A DNA stretch of 64,000 bases from Spizellomyces punctatus DAOM BR117 (lineage: Eukaryota): the NCBI GenBank assembly GCA_000182565.2, contig KQ257454.1; one strand, given 5' to 3'. Positions 43,509 to 57,600 of the stretch are shown piece by piece; position 1 is the first letter of the stretch, and every line of letters begins with the position of its first letter. A program made the translations under genes and the position numbers. The notes beneath the pieces are model-generated. The model had not been told where the DNA came from. It was given only the letters and a program-made list of their open reading frames with translations, and did not search any database.

Positions 43509-45555
43509 TCATTTCATCATACGCGATCCTGTAACTTTTAGCCTAATAGAAGGGCCGCGCGATTCAATAATTACGCCGCGCACTCCTTCTTACCCAATGG
43601 ATATCATACTTACGAGGGGTTGCGCCTAGTTCCGCTGTGGCAGAGAAGGTCTGAACCGAGACGTGTATTGTTTAGGGGGTATTACAGACGTCGATTTTGG
43701 ATTCATACGTGTGGAAGGAGAATCTAAGCGAATATAATGTGGAGACTGAGGTCATGTACACGTTGGAAAGTACCAATAGGTCCGTGTGTACACTTACCCG
43801 GGTGAAGAGTCGATCGTGCGATTCTGGAAGGCACTGGCATAGCTTTCGGAATGGATAGTGTTGTCTTGCCGGGCAGAGGCAAACGCGTGTTTCCTCTGCT
43901 GTACTTGAGGCGTGTGCGGTCCAAGCTGGGACTCTCTTCAAACTTGTCTCCCACCTTACGTTTAGATAAATCGACGGCAGTAGGGCTGGATATTTTGCTT
44001 GGTGATGCGCGTGGGAGACCAGATGGTTTTCGGAGGCCCATGGAGGAATTGGATGAAGTCTTCGTAATCGGCATGGGTTTCACAGACGGTGGTGTAGCGA
44101 GTGGGGAGTATGATTGAATTTCCATTGGATCGCAGCGAACGACGGCCAAGGTAGGTTCAACAGCAGGCGGGACGCTGATGGTGACGTCTACATTCATTTC
44201 TAGAATGTCCTTCTTACTCTGCACGATTAAGGGAGTTACAAAATCTGGTCTTCACTAGTAAATGACATGCTAGCTTACTTTATTCAATAATGTCGTGGTT
44301 CCTTTCGGACCGAAAGCCGTTTTCGGCCTTCCAGCTGTTCGTTTTGAAGTAACCTTGGCAGAGTTTGCGGGTGTGTTGTTTACCTTCGGGGAAAGTACTG
44401 TGCTTGCACTAAATCTAAAGACAGAGGAAGGAGTTGTGAACGATGAGTAAGCTGGCGTAGACAATATATTCTTGGCTGCAACTGCATCGTCGCGAGATTT
44501 GGCGGTGAGTGATGTGATCGGGTGACGTTGTCCAGTAGACGAACGGGGTAAAGCTGGTGACCTCATCGACGCCCGAGACTGAGCAGGGGTTTGAACGGAG
44601 GATCTAGGGCCCGTGGAAGTGCTGGTTGACGACCTAGGGAAAGTAGGGGATCTCGTGGACGACTTTGGGGTTGTGTATGTTGTGGTTGACAGCCGAGGCG
44701 AGGTAGATTCTTTGACAGTTGACCGCGAGGGAGTAGGGCTTATAGAAGACTGAGCTACAGATGACCGAGGCGACGTAGAAGCTTTGACAGCTGACTTCGA
44801 GGGAGTGGCGTTTACAGAAGGCTGAGATCCCATCGTGGCTCTTACAGATGACCGAGGCGAAGTAGAACCTCTGATGGATGACCGCAAGGGAGCATGGGAC
44901 TTTACAGAAGACTGAGGAGTCATAGTGGCTCCTACAGATGACCGAGAAGATGTAGAACCTCGAGCAGAAGATCTAGGCGTCATGGATGTTCTCATTGAAG
45001 GCTTAGGAGATATTTGTGCACTGAGAATAGATTTAGAAGAAGTTGACTGCTTTACAGAAGATTTGCTTGTCATGGGCGTTCGTGTCGAAGATTGAGGAGA
45101 CGTAGGAGGGCTTTGAGTTAAGATGAACGGCTGAGCAGGCGATGCCAGCGTAAATTCTGAAAAATCTGGCGATGCACATCGATCACTCATTGGTGGGGAA
45201 GGAATATCTTCAATCAAGAAGAAGGGATCTATGCTCTCTAGTTTATCAACTATTGAATGAATGGGACTTTAGGAGAACTTCTCGATGGTATTAGAAAGGA
45301 AACAGGACACTGGAAACAATACGCACTGCCAGCAATAGCTCTAAAGAGTGCAATACTCTCTCTTCTCTCACGTTCAGGACGACTGAAGCCCCACTGAGGG
45401 GATCGTCTAGATGAACCTAAAAGAGTTGATGGGGTCTGAACTTCTTTTGGAGGTGATTCTAGTGACAGCGCGGTCATCGACGCGTCCAAATCAATCAGCA
45501 TTGGGTCGACTGTACTGGTTTGTTGATTAATATCGGTAGCAATTACGGTGTCCAT
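43509..45555 (-). CDS. Hypothetical basic Ser/Thr/Pro-rich disordered protein with internal 10-aa repeats, multi-exon
   Basis: Consecutive same-strand ORFs (45250-45555, 44270-45217, 43724-44224) can be joined by GT-AG introns. No recognised domain; both ends are uncertain. Confidence 0.6.
44540..45110 (-). repeat. Degenerate 30-bp (10-aa) coding tandem repeat, consensus about [ST]PRSS[VT]R.S[TM]
   Basis: TPRSSARGST/SSRSSVGATM/TPQSSVKSHA/PLRSSIRGST/SPRSSVRATM. The DNA motif (aca/gga)gatgaccg recurs on the plus strand at about 44757, 44845, 44875 and 44934. Confidence 0.75.
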
Positions 45556-45956: not shown

Positions 45957-46785
45957 ATGCAAACCGTCAAGCTTCCCCCTCTATTCACACCTCCTACACC
46001 AGACTCGCCTGTCCCGTCAGTTCCGTTTGCAACTCCCCTTCCCGACATACACGTTACGCTGTTTAGGAATATTCGGAATGCTGTTGACGTGAGGAATCTG
46101 GTCATCAAGGGAGATCCTCGCGTTCCGGAATGTGTTTTGATAAACGCTGCAACGGTAAGCAACAGCACTTGTTCTGAAAGCCTCTAAAGTTTGTTGTTGA
46201 GTAATGCGTTGGGAAGAGGTGGGACAAACCGACACTGAAAAACTCACTTTTGTAGATTGTCGACGTCTTTCAAATTCAAATGGCATGCACGAAAGCGCTT
46301 CTACATCAACAACAAGGCATCATGCGAACACGATCACTGTACTCTGAAATCCTTTTCAATCTCTCCCCAACAAACAATATTAGCGATGCTATAAGACAGT
46401 TTGGCATATCAGATACAACGACAGCCGTAGCTGTGGTCATGGTTGGCATGCAAGCACCGCCCGAGGAGGTGAGGATTGTATAAAAACATTCTGATAATGT
46501 TATTTGCGTTAGCTCATTGTGGAATGCGGTATATTCAATAGGTACGCTTGCGTCTGTTGACTTTGATAGAGGGCGAACCAATACCGTTGTCACACTTGCC
46601 AGAGTTCACAGATTTACCACTGATAAATAGGGTAAGTGAATGAATACCCGTCGCGCTCCTTTCCCGGCCAAAATTCATATTCAATACGATGTTAGATATA
46701 TAAAACTGGCAATGTTGCAGCTGACAGAGGGCAGACATTGGCGTTGGTGGTTGGGGCAATGGCGCTCAAAGGGCATTTGAGTTAG
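45957..46785 (+). CDS. CGI121: EKC/KEOPS complex subunit Cgi121
   Basis: VTLFRNIRNA, LINAAT|IVDVFQI, MRTRSLYSEILFNLSPTNNISDAIRQFGI and LVVGAMALKG. Confidence 0.9.
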
Positions 46786-47160
46786 CACCTATACTCAGAA
46801 GCAGATATACCTAACCCATTATGGCAGCGTCATCTCAAAGCTAGTTCTGCAGAATAAGATTGGCCACTTTTTCCCGGCCTGGCGTTATTATCATAGTGGA
46901 TACAGTTGGTTTCACGCCGGAGGAAGGACGGGTATAGGTAGCAAATTCAACCGTTGAATATAATGGCGCTAATTTACGTGACCTTTTTCCAACCACCGTT
47001 TGTTTATGTTCGCGTAAAATTGTCTATCCGCTACCCCGTCCATTACCTAACCCTTTAGTAACGCGTCGCGGGTCGGACGTTCCTGGCTGGAACACTTTGC
47101 CAAAGCTCAGCATTTCGTCTTTCTCATTGTCATTCAAGAGTAGCTTCACATTCTAGCATT

Positions 47161-47511
47161 ATGTACACACGTCTTCCCAAGAGCTTTTGGTGGTGTCTGT
47201 TTCTCGTCCTGAGTGCTTTTGTTGCCACAATTGACGCCCTCGAAGTGAGTTTCTAACTCTTCTCGTTGTCCTATCCTATTCCACATGATTGTGCTGACAG
47301 AAGTACACAGGCGTTTCAAGCTATGGTTCCACCTTCTGCGGCCGGCCTAAGTAATGGCATCGGCAAGAGATTTGCCCGTGATATCCCCGAGGAGCTCCCA
47401 GTGCTTCCTGCTCTCCACAATACTCGTCACACTCACCGTCGCCGAAACGCTGCTCCGGATTCAGAGCAAGTTCGTCGCAGGGAACGCAGAGATTATCCGG
47501 AAGAATTGTAA
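47161..47511 (+). CDS. Small secreted prepropeptide (94 aa), 2 exons (47161-47244, 47311-47511)
   Basis: Exon 1 is the signal-peptide-like MYTRLPKSFWWCLFLVLSAFVATIDALE, ending at a GTGAGT donor. A GCTGAC branch point and CAG acceptor give an in-frame exon 2 with GKR, RRR and RRRERR sites. Confidence 0.62.
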
Positions 47512-48329
47512 AGGGGAACTGCGAGTGTTTGATTTGGTGATCCGCCATGGAGTGTGAATCCAGCGGCGGATACTTGCAGCGAATATCCTCGGGAAGTCCT
47601 GGTTCTTTACTTTATAAAATAGAACTATATCCGCCTATATAAGAAACACTCATCATCTGCACATCAATGGCCATTTCTGGGACGAGACGTCTGGTACTTG
47701 GCAGGACCTCATCACATGCTATTCCCTTAGAATACAAAATGCGTAAGGTGTTGAGTGACCGATGGTGGTAAACCGACATCATGCAACCGGAATTTTGTGT
47801 TTGCCTTTAAATGGGTGGAACACAGTATCCACAGAATTGCTCGGACTGAAGTTCATATTTGACATATCATATCCATTTCTAATGAGTCGGAAGCGTGAGC
47901 CACCTTCTTTGGTCTTCCAAATCGCTATCGATACCGCTGGCATTAGTACCGGATTACACCCAAGAAGATGCGGAATAATGACTGTTGTAACCGCGATATT
48001 GTGAACACTCATGCAAGGAATAAATAGATACACTTGGAATGATCGTCCGCAGCTATACAATTACTGCTGAGACATAACTGAGTACCGCTTATCCAGAGAG
48101 GCATCACTTTAGCTACATTATTTGACTGTAAATGCGCACGATGCTGTTGTTGTGTAAGTGTGGCAGGTTAGTTTCCAACAACTTGAGAGCTTTGCAGATA
48201 GTGCTCACACGCTGCTTCCCGCTGCGGCGTAAACAAATACCCTAGCTGGAACAGAATTGAACCGTTGCAGCCACGCAAGACAGTTGTTAGTGAAGAACAG
48301 CGCGTGGCAGGTTTGTGATCCAGGTCACC

Positions 48330-49199
48330 ATGTCACATCTGCAGCAACGTAAGACCGCCAGCTCCCAAGGCGCACCACAACAGGAGCCTACCTTTCAGAG
48401 AAATTCTCCTCGGAAGCGAACGACAACGTCTTCAACAAGCGGTGTAGGGACTTTTCTCTTGACTCTCGGCCTGATCATTGTCACTGGACTCGCAACAAGT
48501 TGGATAGTCACAGATTCGCTGACTTTCGGGTATCCCATACCCAATTGGAGAAAACTTCTTCACGTACGTTTCTGTAATTGCGCACCGGCCTCTCAAGCGT
48601 GGCTTGCCCTATAACTGACAGTGATTCATATTCAATTAGCGACACGAGATTACACTGACCACCGCCGAATTGGCCCAATATGATGGCACAGATCCGAGCA
48701 AGCCCATATATCTAGCTATTAAGTAAGTCACGAGAAAGGCGAGCTTGACTGTTGACGGATTATTCTCTTTTGCTGATATGCCACTCAGTGGGAAGGTGTA
48801 TGATGTCAGCGCCGGCCCGCAGTATTATGGGAAGGTAAGGACCGTTGATCCCAGAAAAGTCTGTCCCAGTGACTGATTCTATTGAGTAGGGTGGAGGGTA
48901 CAATTTCTTTTCAGGAAAGGACGCTGCCCGGGCATACATCACCGGCTGTTTCCAGACCCACCTCACCCACGATCTACGAGGATTGAGTGAAGCTCAAATC
49001 AAGGTAGGCACAGTAGATTAAATATAGGCCACTGGCAGTACTAATAACCGTCCTCCTTCAGACGCTTGATCAATGGACAGACTTCTATGCAAAGCACGAC
49101 CAATACTTCTATGTTGGCAAGGTCATCCATGATCCAATACCAGAGGACGCACCAATCCCTGAAGACTGTAATGCTCAAACGAGTGAATCAGCCTCCTAA
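48330..49199 (+). CDS. Cytochrome b5-like heme/steroid-binding protein (MAPR family)
   Basis: N-terminal TM segment, LT.AELAQYDGTDPSKPIYLAINGKVYDVSAG..YYGKGGGYNFFSGKDAARAYITGCF..HLTHDLRGL and W..FY...YFYVGKV. Confidence 0.9.
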
Positions 49200-53038: not shown

Positions 53039-53568
53039 GGTGGAACAGGAGCTTGTGACGGGGCAGATTGAAGGGCCAGATGGGCAGGCGAAGGTACCAC
53101 ACTCGTGTATTTGCAGCTACTTCAATTAGTGGGTGGCTTAGTGGTGCTTAGCTGGGTGATCGTCTGGTAATTGTGCTCCGACAGTGTGTGTGTGCTGTCG
53201 CAAGTCAGAGTATTGTGCGCATAACACCAAACACAACGCATCATGTGAAGGATGGGCATGAATTCATCCACAAAATATCTGTAATCCATTGTGATATACG
53301 ATTCCTTCAGATCTGAGGGATGACAACTTTCACAGATCAAGGCTACCACGGCGATTAGGACAAAGAGACACGACGTAGAAATGGGCAACGGAATGCACAT
53401 AGAGGTTGCTGTCGCCTGCTGTTTGCAAAGCAGCCATTCTCATCCGTAGCTAGCTATAGCCATGTGAGGCTTGAGGCTTACCTCATCATTGGACGAACGC
53501 GAGGTTTGTCCCAATTGTCTTCCTGGCTGAAGTATAGCGCCCGCCCCTACACGGCAGCAGAAGGGGCT

Positions 53569-54429
53569 ATGACGGGACTTTCGTATCAGCAATCTCCAGC
53601 ATCTTTTGACGCGAAGGATGTTGGTAATACTCTGATCTATCCAAGGGCATCAAAGCGTTCCCGCCCCGGATCTTATCATCAAAAAGGAAATACGGAAGTA
53701 GATCCGTTGATACGGGAGCTAGAGGAGCTATTGAAGGAGTCCAACGTACCAAATCTCACTAAGAAATCCCTGGCTCCTAACGCTCATGATCAACCTGCGG
53801 TCCCGCGTCGACCAACTACACCATCCGCGAATCTGTCTCATCCTCCCCTTTCCGAACCGCACCAACCAACAGCTCTCATCTCCGCTCGTCTTCTGTTTCT
53901 CCTGAAAGCTCATTTGAAGACCTTAACGCATGCTACAAAATCACAGGCATCCCAGATCAAATCTCTGGAATCTGCACTCAGAGCATCTCAAAGTAGGGAA
54001 AATGCCCTTCAAACGTCATTGGAATCATGTCAACTGGACTCGGCAAAATCGATCGCAAATCTCCAAAACCAGATCCGGAATTTGAATCGGCAGCTTGTCA
54101 GCGTTAAGGGACAAGCGGCCAAGGAGTTGCGTGCAAAGTGTCGAGCATTGGAGCTGGATCTCTTTAGAGAACGTGCGGGGAGGACGAAGGTCGCAGTCGA
54201 GCTGGACACGGTTGTTGAGAAGGAGCGAAAGGAGAGACAACAGTTGGTATTGCTTTTGGTTAATCAACTGGAGAAAATGAGCAAGATTCAGCATAAGCAG
54301 GAATTCAAAGAAGCTGAGAATGAACAGCTAGGGTTTTTGTATAAACATGCTAACGAGCGGATATGTCAGACACAGCAACATCTGCAGCAATTGACCCTAA
54401 CACTGCGACAATCATTGACTGGTCAATAA
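53569..54429 (+). CDS. Hypothetical coiled-coil protein (intronless)
   Basis: Uninterrupted ORF of about 286 codons from the first ATG. The C-terminal half is heptad-like and Leu/Glu/Gln/Lys-rich. No recognised family. Confidence 0.6.
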   Translation: MTGLSYQQSPASFDAKDVGNTLIYPRASKRSRPGSYHQKGNTEVDPLIRELEELLKESNVPNLTKKSLAPNAHDQPAVPRRPTTPSANLSHPPLSEPHQPTALISARLLFLLKAHLKTLTHATKSQASQIKSLESALRASQSRENALQTSLESCQLDSAKSIANLQNQIRNLNRQLVSVKGQAAKELRAKCRALELDLFRERAGRTKVAVELDTVVEKERKERQQLVLLLVNQLEKMSKIQHKQEFKEAENEQLGFLYKHANERICQTQQHLQQLTLTLRQSLTGQ

Positions 54430-54695: not shown

Positions 54696-57600
54696 TCATC
54701 CCGAAACCAACAATCGTGGAGCAATATTCATTGCCATTAACTCCTGGAACAGTAGCTTGGCAGCATACGGTATATGCAACTGTGATATCTCCGTCGTATT
54801 TTGGCAGGATCGGCATTCGTATTTGTTACGTTTAAGATCTGCAATCACCATGAGACCGCAACGGTCGCAAACATGAACACGATAGGCGTCTGATGCATCA
54901 AAAAGACGTTCCTATGCGAAGCAAAAACATCAGGTTGACCATAGAACTGTTTGACCAAGAAGACGATAGGTTACCTTCAAGAACTGTGCAGCTCCATGAG
55001 CAATGAAACAATCACGTTCCATCTCTCCAAACCGTAGACCTCCATCACGGGAACGACCCTCCACCGGCTGCCGGGTCAAAATCTGCACGGGCCCACGTGC
55101 ACGACTGTGAATCTTGTCATCTACCATATGCTTCAGCCTCTGGTAGTATGTCGGTCCAAAGAAAACTTGCGCTTGCAGCTTCCGGCCAGTGTGTCCATTG
55201 TACAATACTTCAAAACCGCGCTTTTGGTACCCAAACTGCTCCAACGCCCTCGATATCTGGTCAACTGTAAGATCGGTGAATGGCGTCGCATCGCCTTCCA
55301 CACCGGTCAAGGTTGCGAGTTTGGATAACAGACATTCGACCAAATGCCCAATTGTCATACGTGATGGAATAGCATGTGGATTGATAATCAAATCCGGACT
55401 TATACCTTCCGCTGAGAAAGGCAGGTCCTCTTGCCGATATGTTATACCTACAGTACCCTTCTGACCGTGACGTGACTGTGCGGTTGCATAAATTTTAAGT
55501 CAAACAATTTGATAGCTTAACACAGCACCGGCGGCGATACTCACAGCAAACTTATCACCCATCTGCGGCACACGAACGGAACGAACGCGGACTTTGACAA
55601 ATTTAAATCCTGCCTCGTTTGTAGTTACATTACCCGATCAATAATGCCGTTTTCCGTACTCTTCAGCGGAGTAGATGCATCCCGTTTGGTGTGAGCTGCG
55701 GTACGCTGACCCATCTCAGCGCTGTCTTCTTTGATTGGCACAGTTTTTCCGATAATGATATCCTCGCCGCCGACTCTGACGCCCGGTGCGATTAGCCCAT
55801 CGTTGTCCAGCTTTTCATACGTTCCATGCTTAAGCCGCAGACAGCTGTCCCTTGACGGCTTTTCGAACGTTTCACTGGCCATCATTCCGACCTTCTTCTC
55901 GGTGTCCATGTACACTCGATAATACATACTTCTAAAAAGTCCTCGATCAATGGAGCTTTGACTCATGATCAGGGAATCTTCCTGATTGTAGCCGGAGTAC
56001 ACAGCAATAGCCACAACCGCATTTTGACCAGCAGGTAGTTCTCGGAAATGCATGAACTCCATAGCACGGGTAGTCGCAAGCGGCTTTTGCGGGTAGAACA
56101 GAATGTTTGCCATTGTGTCCATACGGATTTGATAGTTTGTGAGGAAAATGCCCATAGCCTGTTTACCCATAGCTGACTGATAGGTGTTACGTGGAGACTA
56201 CAAGAAACCAGATCAGTTCCTGTCAAATGCATGAAAGTATATTGCCCACTTACTTGGTTATGATCCGGAAACGGAATAATACTAGCGCAAATGCCAAGGA
56301 TCATGCTAGGATGAATCTCACAATGCGTGTAATTTCGCGCATATACAGCATTGGATCTCAAACGTGCGAATNNNNNNNNNNNNNNNNNNNNNNNNNNNNN
56401 NNNNNNNNNNNNNNNNNNNNNNNNNNNNNNNNNNNNNNNNNNNNNNNNNNNNNNNNNNNNNNNNNNNNNNNNNNNNNNNNNNNNNCTTCCGTATCCAGAT
56501 ATTCCACCACCCTTCTTCAAGCAGATAATTCCAGTCACACTGCCGCATTTGGGTGTCGGGCTAGGCAATTAAAATTTAGCTCAGTGATTACGGGCAAACA
56601 CATCTATGATGTCTTCTTACATCAGTCTTTGTTTTCAAAGCAATTTCCTTGGTCAAGGAGAGTGTCTGATCCTCTTCTACAATGAACAAAGGACGTGATA
56701 TACGTCCCCCATCAGTGTAAAGACGTAGTTCCTTATCCGCAACGTCTCGAACAATTGATAACTCCGGAGTTACGTCTACATTTCTTCGCAAGTTCCTCAA
56801 AGTCTTGACTAATGTATCTGGATCATCATGAATACCTAGCCATTGACCATTGACAAATACTTTCGTGGCTTTGGGAATTCGATCTGGTGTAATTTCCTCC
56901 AAATTTTCCATATTGAACTCGTTCAAGAAATCAAGAATCGGGGCCACCGAATGTCCAACAGTCACATAAGACATCAATGACAAGTTCTTGACAAGACCAC
57001 AAGCCTGTCCCTCGGGGGTTTCGGCTGGGCATACCTATAAGGTTCCGGTAAAGAAGTTTATAAATTAACTATTTCTGATAGTATTTATCTCCTACCCTCT
57101 TCATTAGCTGTTCTTACATACCATACCCCAGTGGGTGTTATGCAGCTGACGGGGCTTGGCCAATTTCCCGTCTCGCCCTATCGGTGTGTTCAAACGACGT
57201 AGATGCGACAAGGTTGACGCATAGGTATATCGGTTGAGTACTTGACTGACACCCGCGCGTGCTTGCATGAATTTTTTTTGGTCGCCCCAGTTACCAGTAG
57301 CAAGAGAATACTGCAGCCCTCTCGTTATGGTACCGCCCTTAATTGCCATTGTCAAGTTGAACTCGCCGCGTGAGTCTACCACTTTTCTTGTATATCTGGT
57401 CACGTCATTCGTAAGCTTCCTAAAGAGCATCCGGAACAGCCCACTAAGTAGTGGACCAGCTAGATCCAGACGCTTCTTTCCGAAGTGATCACGATCGTCG
57501 AGTTCACGTCGCTCCAACGCCGCCAGCAGCAGTCGGTGAATCATGTAACCAAAGAAGAACGCCTTCCGTGTCTGATGATGCGCGCTAGTGCTTACATGAG

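Follow-up and report, generated by a model that had tools for sequence, protein, structure and literature searches.

A spliced, genus-restricted gene of Spizellomyces punctatus encodes a putative secreted precursor with multibasic sites and a repeated RD(I/Y)PEEL motif

The question raised by positions 47161–47511 of the DNA analysed here, a 64,000-nt stretch of contig KQ257454.1 of Spizellomyces punctatus DAOM BR117 (hereafter, the window), is whether they hold a gene and, if they do, whether its product is a precursor that is cut into peptides. A reading made from the sequence alone, before any database search, had proposed a small spliced gene at this place and had interpreted its product as an animal-style prohormone, in which a ...GLSNGI-Gly-Lys-Arg site would give rise to a C-terminally amidated signalling peptide. 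We examined the transcript, the protein and its relatives, and weighed this interpretation against several others.

The coding part of the gene lies on the + strand and consists of two exons. Exon 1 (47161–47244, 28 codons) opens with an ATG that has an A at −3 and that, since no other ATG occurs between about 47100 and 47161, is the first AUG in the transcript. It is followed by a 66-nt intron (47245–47310, +; GTGAGT...CAG), with a branch-like GCTGAC at 47293–47298, 13 nt upstream of the acceptor, and by exon 2 (47311–47511, +), which comprises 66 codons and a TAA stop at 47509–47511. The joined exons encode a 94-aa product made up of a 28-aa and a 66-aa part. The sequence-only reading had drawn the exon and intron coordinates and both translated parts correctly, and the junction is present in RNA. 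It had also described this product as missed, but the product is annotated: the translation is identical to SPPG_09113 of S. punctatus DAOM BR117 (KND01605.1 / XP_016609644.1), an 'uncharacterized protein' at NCBI that bears the name 'Secreted protein' in UniRef, so the gene model was already public.

RNA reads were mapped to the region 46300–48700, and splice joints were listed from 3 reads upwards. Run X10 consists of raw RNA reads under the same species label and comes from a strongly 3'-biased library, whereas run X1 is RNA labelled as root metagenome. In X10, the joint 47244/47311, which skips 66 nt between GT and AG, is carried by 30 reads with 12 start places. Two other products were computed, one of 45 aa from the nearer acceptor at 47300 and one of 31 aa from intron retention; no joint to 47301 occurs among the X10 joints of at least 3 reads, so the nearer acceptor, whose use had been named as one of the findings that would refute the earlier interpretation, has no place among them. 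X1 yielded one 387-nt contig (window 47173–47625) with the same splice joint and no other letters, which indicates that the transcript was abundant enough to be assembled from an environmental sample. This contig covers SPPG_09113 alone, and the neighbouring genes are absent within the 2.4 kb compared.

The transcript spans 47110–47661 on the + strand, its first mates being almost exclusively +, with the 5' end bracketed within 47110–47160. At the other end, 55 X10 reads with A-runs behind 47661 mark a poly(A) site, and the 3' untranslated region (47512–47661, +) is covered at a depth of 277–550 up to the poly(A) loose ends at 47661. Depth in X10 is 48 in the bin 47110–47190 and drops to 0.09 in the bin 47029–47109, which makes SPPG_09113 a transcription unit separate from the upstream gene. 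The peak bin reaches 690 in one direction versus 0.8 in the other, the direction being the same as that of the upstream + strand gene, and its depth is about four times that at the 3' end of that gene (690 versus 168), a ratio that, because of the strong 3' bias of the library, we take to mean 'well expressed' and nothing more. Together, these reads show that SPPG_09113 has a promoter of its own and that its transcript carries the proposed splice and a poly(A) tail. Two further runs did not enter this evidence: nothing from X11 was placed on 46300–48700, and X4, whose contig runs through part of the intron and through intergenic space, looks like genomic DNA and was rejected.

With regard to the neighbouring genes, the upstream one was rightly named as CGI-121 (PF08617, E 1.7e-20). 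It is polyadenylated at 46981 (32 reads), about 180 nt ahead of the start codon of SPPG_09113, and it contains short introns of 73 and 64 nt (46466–46540 and 46630–46695, 3 reads each). The assignment of the downstream gene as MAPR/cytochrome b5-like is more doubtful, given that one exon piece matches PDB entries 1j03 and 1t0g at E 0.12 and that a Pfam search with three pieces of this putative gene gave no match. X10 reads are almost absent from 47677–48700, that is, from the downstream space and the 5' part of the putative MAPR gene, and with a 3'-biased library this near-silence says little about the expression of the latter.

Several other features of the window were recorded in passing. 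On the − strand, a frame of 306–332 aa at 44273–45268 consists almost entirely of Ser/Thr/Pro/Arg-rich repeats of the S-P-R-S-S type and has no Pfam family. A large gene occupies 15257–20542 (−), with a leucine-rich-repeat part in its upstream ORF (18836–20542); its 1192-aa ORF (15257–18832, −) has no Pfam family, is 92% identical to an ortholog of 1627 aa in Spizellomyces sp. 'palustris' and is 31–43% identical to proteins of six other chytrid genera. A 356-aa frame at 53359–54426 (+), likewise without a Pfam family, has as its sole match in a collection of 5.8 billion proteins a 286-aa protein of 'palustris' with 91% identity and is, as far as these matches indicate, another genus-restricted gene. 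Besides, a run of 114 N at 56372–56485, probably an assembly gap, falls within a − strand gene of the RNA polymerase Rpb2 type.

The N-terminus of SPPG_09113 has n, h and c regions like those of a signal peptide, as had been suggested. The signal-peptide-like segment (residues 1–26; 47161–47238, +) carries R4 and K7 in its n-region, followed by a hydrophobic core (F9–I24) in which 9-residue hydropathy means rise to 2.9, and small residues fit the −3/−1 rule at IDA|LE, with LEA|FQ as an alternative cut. An AlphaFold2 model built on a two-sequence alignment (mean pLDDT 63.5, pTM 0.28) is confident only for a helix at residues 7–33 (pLDDT 77–93), and the ESM Atlas model has a pLDDT of 0.49. Because the basic residues lie on the N-terminal side of this helix, the tail is expected to be lumenal whether or not the segment is cleaved. 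The tail itself, the 68 aa after A26, contains 11 Arg, 1 Lys, 7 Glu, 3 Asp and 7 Pro, with a net charge of about +2. The description of the mature region as free of Cys and of domains also held: there is no Cys, the 94-aa protein matches 0 Pfam families, a PDB sequence search gave nothing below E 0.42 (its sole match, at E 0.42), and no part of the tail takes a confident fold.

Relatives of the protein were sought in several collections. A word-indexed protein search returned one candidate, SPPG_09113 itself. A phmmer search against 1.84 billion representatives gave three matches at E ≤ 0.001, two of which (P0004 and P0005) are perfect tandem-repeat translations and were discarded as artefacts of summed repeats. 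The 90% cluster adds one member, TPX72976.1 (SpCBS45565_g00081) from Spizellomyces sp. 'palustris', which also has 94 aa, is 95% identical (5 of 94 residues changed: T3A, A22V, A38S, S42I and T69S) and keeps all basic residues, the GKR site and both RD(I/Y)PEEL motifs. For comparison, 'palustris' g00070 and g00086 match two further ORFs of the window, themselves poorly conserved, at 92% and 91% identity, and the numbering of these genes (g00070, g00081, g00086) points to conserved gene order. No homolog was found outside the genus, in a collection that includes proteomes of Powellomyces, Geranomyces, Thoreauomyces, Gaertneriomyces, Phlyctochytrium and Blyttiomyces; the presence of these six related proteomes makes the silence there real for annotated proteins. 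Considering, however, that the 1192-aa ORF used as a calibrator is only 31–43% identical in other genera, a disordered protein of 94 aa would be undetectable at that distance, and 'orphan' may simply mean fast-evolving.

Within the window, tblastn at permissive settings detected no paralog (next best match, E 0.027), and the pattern D.PEEL occurs in SPPG_09113 only. A metagenome scan gave 493 pattern matches, three of which passed tblastn, and all three were rejected as seeded chance matches. Two of them (L001, 3001–3159, and L003, 1387–1527) fall within long bacterial ORFs that we take to be sigma-54 (RpoN), at their acidic linker, and the third (L002) is inside another bacterial ORF; the stretch DIPEELPVDSAWDD, common to the acidic linkers of L001 and L003, accounts for their chance matches to DIPEELPV. 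The motifs are all kept in 'palustris', and no conservation is detectable beyond the genus in the protein collections or the metagenome scan.

The tail also has a particular arrangement of basic residues and of a short repeat. Its basic sites are G46-K47-R48 (47362–47370, +), proposed as an amidation-type site, which we read as an I-G-K-R kexin-type site and which is kept in the ortholog; R71–R73 (47437–47445, +); and RRRERR at residues 83–88 (47473–47490, +), with an R-x-R-R pattern at 85–88. In 100,000 composition-keeping shuffles, dibasic pairs in the mature part (P=0.003) and basic clusters (P=0.02) exceeded chance, in agreement with the multibasic character attributed to this region, whereas the G[KR][KR] pattern alone did not (P=0.09). 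The repetition of RD(I/Y)PEEL is also real. RDIPEEL and RDYPEEL are identical at 6 of 7 residues (P=0.0014, 5,000 shuffles), and the likeness extends to KRFARDIPEEL (residues 47–57; 47365–47397, +) and RRERRDYPEEL (residues 84–94, the C-terminus; 47476–47508, +), identical at 7 of 11 residues with the dibasic site in register (P=0.0004, 5,000 shuffles). The two 11-mers use different codons at 6 of the 7 identical residues, which indicates that the likeness has been maintained in the protein and does not stem from a recent DNA duplication.

Taken together, these features are best explained if SPPG_09113 is a genus-restricted secreted pre-pro-protein whose multibasic sites are cleaved to give short acidic peptides, with RD(I/Y)PEEL common to two of these; the targeting and the cleavage are what we infer here, and we give this reading a probability of about 0.45. 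The N-terminal hydrophobic segment would take the chain into the ER, where it would probably be cleaved near A26, and the tail of about 68 aa without a confident fold would then pass through the Golgi. There, a kexin-type (Kex2/furin-like) convertase might cut after IGKR48, HRRR73, VRRR85 and RERR88. Presumably, IGKR offers the aliphatic P4 residue that Kex2 prefers, and RERR corresponds to the furin pattern R-x-[KR]-R. Cutting at the clusters in silico yields LEAFQAMVPPSAAGLSNGIG, FARDIPEELPVLPALHNTRHTH, NAAPDSEQV, E and DYPEEL. The short acidic peptides so released would include two with the RD(I/Y)PEEL core, both situated four residues after a dibasic site, and two of the four clusters stand directly before an X-Ala or X-Pro dipeptide (FA; NA-AP). 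The logic would be that of fungal Kex2-processed repeat precursors, such as alpha-factor and the KEPs, reduced to a minimum of two copies. As for the enzyme, Li et al. list two kexin-like genes in Batrachochytrium, which were dropped from their alignment (PMC5371821).

It is unlikely, but well worth considering, that the protein is secreted and stays whole, as a small disordered protein whose Arg clusters bind wall polymers, other polyanions or nucleic acids or, if the protein is of an effector type, act much like a nuclear-targeting element. A tail without a confident fold, in which 11 Arg and 1 Lys face 10 acidic residues, would suit such a role, and so would the pattern RR-x10-RRR at residues 71–85, which we take to be similar to a bipartite nuclear localization signal. 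The occurrence of the transcript in the root-associated run X1 is in line with this possibility, as is the genus-restricted orphan status, common among small secreted proteins. On the other hand, a dibasic site in register in both motif copies is left unexplained by a pure binding role, the net charge is only about +2, and we know of no host or target for S. punctatus, a saprotroph.

A second possibility, decidedly less probable, is that SPPG_09113 is a young lineage-specific gene without a selected peptide function, and that its motifs are by-products of an Arg/Glu/Pro-rich composition. This would agree with the lack of homologs outside the genus despite the search of six other Spizellomycetales and related proteomes, and also with the divergence from 'palustris', which is not significantly below that of other poorly conserved genes: the 5 changes in 94 residues are not significantly fewer than expected at the 91–92% level (P=0.14–0.23). 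For the processing model, too, the conservation seen in 'palustris' carries little statistical weight: with three changes in the mature part, chance alone would spare all 24 basic-or-motif positions in 26% of cases. Against a young gene without a selected function, both the repeat (P=0.0004) and the basic clustering (P=0.003) exceed composition-keeping shuffles, the two species share the frame, the first-AUG start and the splice, expression in X10 is high relative to the upstream gene (peak bin 690 versus 168), and fast evolution may by itself account for the apparent orphan status.

We regard as improbable that the protein resides in the ER lumen, with its C-terminal PEEL serving as a KDEL-like signal for return from the Golgi. 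The x-E-E-L terminus would favour such a role and, in the study by Raykhel et al. in human cells, the −3 position of KDEL-type signals is described as tolerating all residues but proline, a PDEL reporter showed a mixed ER/Golgi location, and natural proteins ending in PDEL and PGEL were found in the ER (PMC2140024). Against it, PEEL fails the PROSITE pattern [KRHQSA]-[DENQ]-E-L quoted there, the Pro at −4 being outside the pattern, and it is not among the variants tested there. KDEL-type soluble ER residents are similar to SPPG_09113 in having a C-terminal x-E-E-L after a putative signal peptide, and differ in that SPPG_09113 has Pro at −4 and carries the motif internally as well. This internal occurrence, within the repeat, suggests a peptide motif instead of a terminal sorting tag. 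Were Golgi-to-ER retrieval through PEEL to operate, a late-Golgi protease would have little access to the protein, and this would count against processing by a Kex2-type enzyme.

Very unlikely, in our view, is a type II membrane protein, in which an uncleaved signal anchor would leave the tail displayed on the surface of the cell or of an organelle. In favour of an anchor, the core of about 16–17 residues (F9–I24) is on the long side for a signal peptide, and AlphaFold2 draws one continuous helix through residues 7–33. Yet small residues stand at −1 and −3 after the core (IDA|LE or LEA|FQ), the protein is named as secreted in UniRef, and even an anchored tail would still face the lumen and hence a convertase.

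The amidated-hormone interpretation, from which the present analysis started, fares worst. In its favour, a Gly directly precedes a basic site at G46-K47-R48, a single site that is conserved in the ortholog, and a search by ESM features placed SPPG_09113 nearest to clusters of animal neuropeptide precursors (scores 0.83–0.88), namely pigment-dispersing hormone, diuretic hormone, neuropeptide F, galanin, spexin, urotensin and GnRH, some of which, such as pigment-dispersing hormone, neuropeptide F and GnRH, are amidated-peptide precursors. Shuffled proteins, however, reach a score of 0.8 in this search a third of the time, and scores below 0.9 are a lead only; we read this likeness as one of architecture, not of kinship. 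The protein has no sequence relation to any peptide-hormone family in Pfam (0 families) or among the 1.84 billion representatives searched with phmmer, and none of the 58 window ORFs scanned for domains has a PHM, PAL, subtilase or carboxypeptidase domain. A review reports that the amidating enzyme PAM is present in chlorophytes and missing throughout fungi, chytrids included (PMC6529398). The peptide ahead of GKR, moreover, is the part that varies between the two species (A38S and S42I are two of the three changes in the mature region), while the RDxPEEL parts are invariant. Given that a G[KR][KR] site arises in 9% of shuffles, that fungi are reported to lack PAM and that the changes fall before GKR, we consider an amidated hormone hardly credible.

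SPPG_09113 is not named in the main text of the literature searched and has 0 occurrences in the supplements of PMC5364385, and none of the papers listed for small secreted proteins of Spizellomyces appears to concern it. A supplement of PMC12695648 lists a 6mA fraction of 0.0275 for this gene in the multinucleated stage versus 0.0271 in the zoospore stage; since file 1 of that study holds variable-6mA genes only, the absence of SPPG_09113 from it says nothing about expression.

Returning to the Kex2-type precursor, it could be asked whether the peptides would act as signals. A convertase that frees RD(I/Y)PEEL peptides (DYPEEL and an RDIPEEL... 20–22-mer) might provide Spizellomyces with a secreted signal to which its own cells respond; zoospore release, encystment, density sensing and taxis are examples of what it might affect, and we advance this proposal as a long shot. 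If true, the early-branching flagellated fungi, whose cell–cell signals are essentially unknown, would have their first peptidergic signal, one that evolved separately from the neuropeptides of animals and has no need of PAM. S. punctatus is reportedly transformable, as Medina et al. are said to have described in 2020 (cited in PMC12695648). If the protein is indeed cut into secreted peptides, it would offer a compact and tractable case of convertase-made peptides in an early-branching, flagellated and genetically transformable fungus. In any event, the record of this locus can be corrected: the gene is real and expressed, already annotated and confined to one genus, and its reading as a source of amidated peptides is without support.

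Among known systems, one comparison is with Chlamydomonas, a flagellated unicell with a PAM-dependent amidated ciliary peptide made from a small secreted precursor with basic sites; SPPG_09113 resembles it in belonging to a flagellated organism and in being a small precursor-like protein with basic sites. For animal prohormone precursors, which are processed by PC1/3 or PC2, carboxypeptidase E and PAM, the likeness lies in the putative signal peptide, the short Cys-free disordered chain, the multibasic sites and one Gly-Lys-Arg, and the difference in the lack of sequence homology; to our knowledge, neither a regulated secretory pathway nor a receptor has been described for chytrids. Both systems depend on the amidating enzyme that fungi are reported to lack (PMC6529398).

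KEPs provide the remaining comparison. In Le Marquer et al. 2019, they are defined by a signal peptide and at least three fragments in a pattern between KR/RR/KK(/RK) sites, with repeats making up at least 15% of the protein (PMC6339444), and Umemura 2020 requires at least three tandem repeats of at least 8 aa (PMC7329392). SPPG_09113 has two copies of [KR]RxxRD[IY]PEEL where both definitions ask for at least three, its segments between sites are unlike each other, and it lacks MF_alpha as well as any other Pfam family; its repeat share, 14–22 of 94 aa (15–23%), lies at or above the published 15%. The survey by Umemura included S. punctatus DAOM BR117 and listed nine KEPs for it (PMC7329392, Tables S1 and S2); KND01605.1 is absent from the nine in Table S2, as is to be expected of a protein with two copies only. 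Le Marquer et al. nevertheless mention natural precursors of alpha-factor that have a single copy or only few, and they also describe X-Ala or X-Pro after the sites as a Ste13-type signature of KEPs (PMC6339444). With these proteins SPPG_09113 shares a putative signal peptide followed by a domain-free region with KR/RR sites, a short motif that recurs after a dibasic site, and X-Ala or X-Pro after two of the sites. It likewise belongs to the stand-alone type without homologs, to which 2560 of the 7878 KEPs in the Umemura survey belong (PMC7329392).
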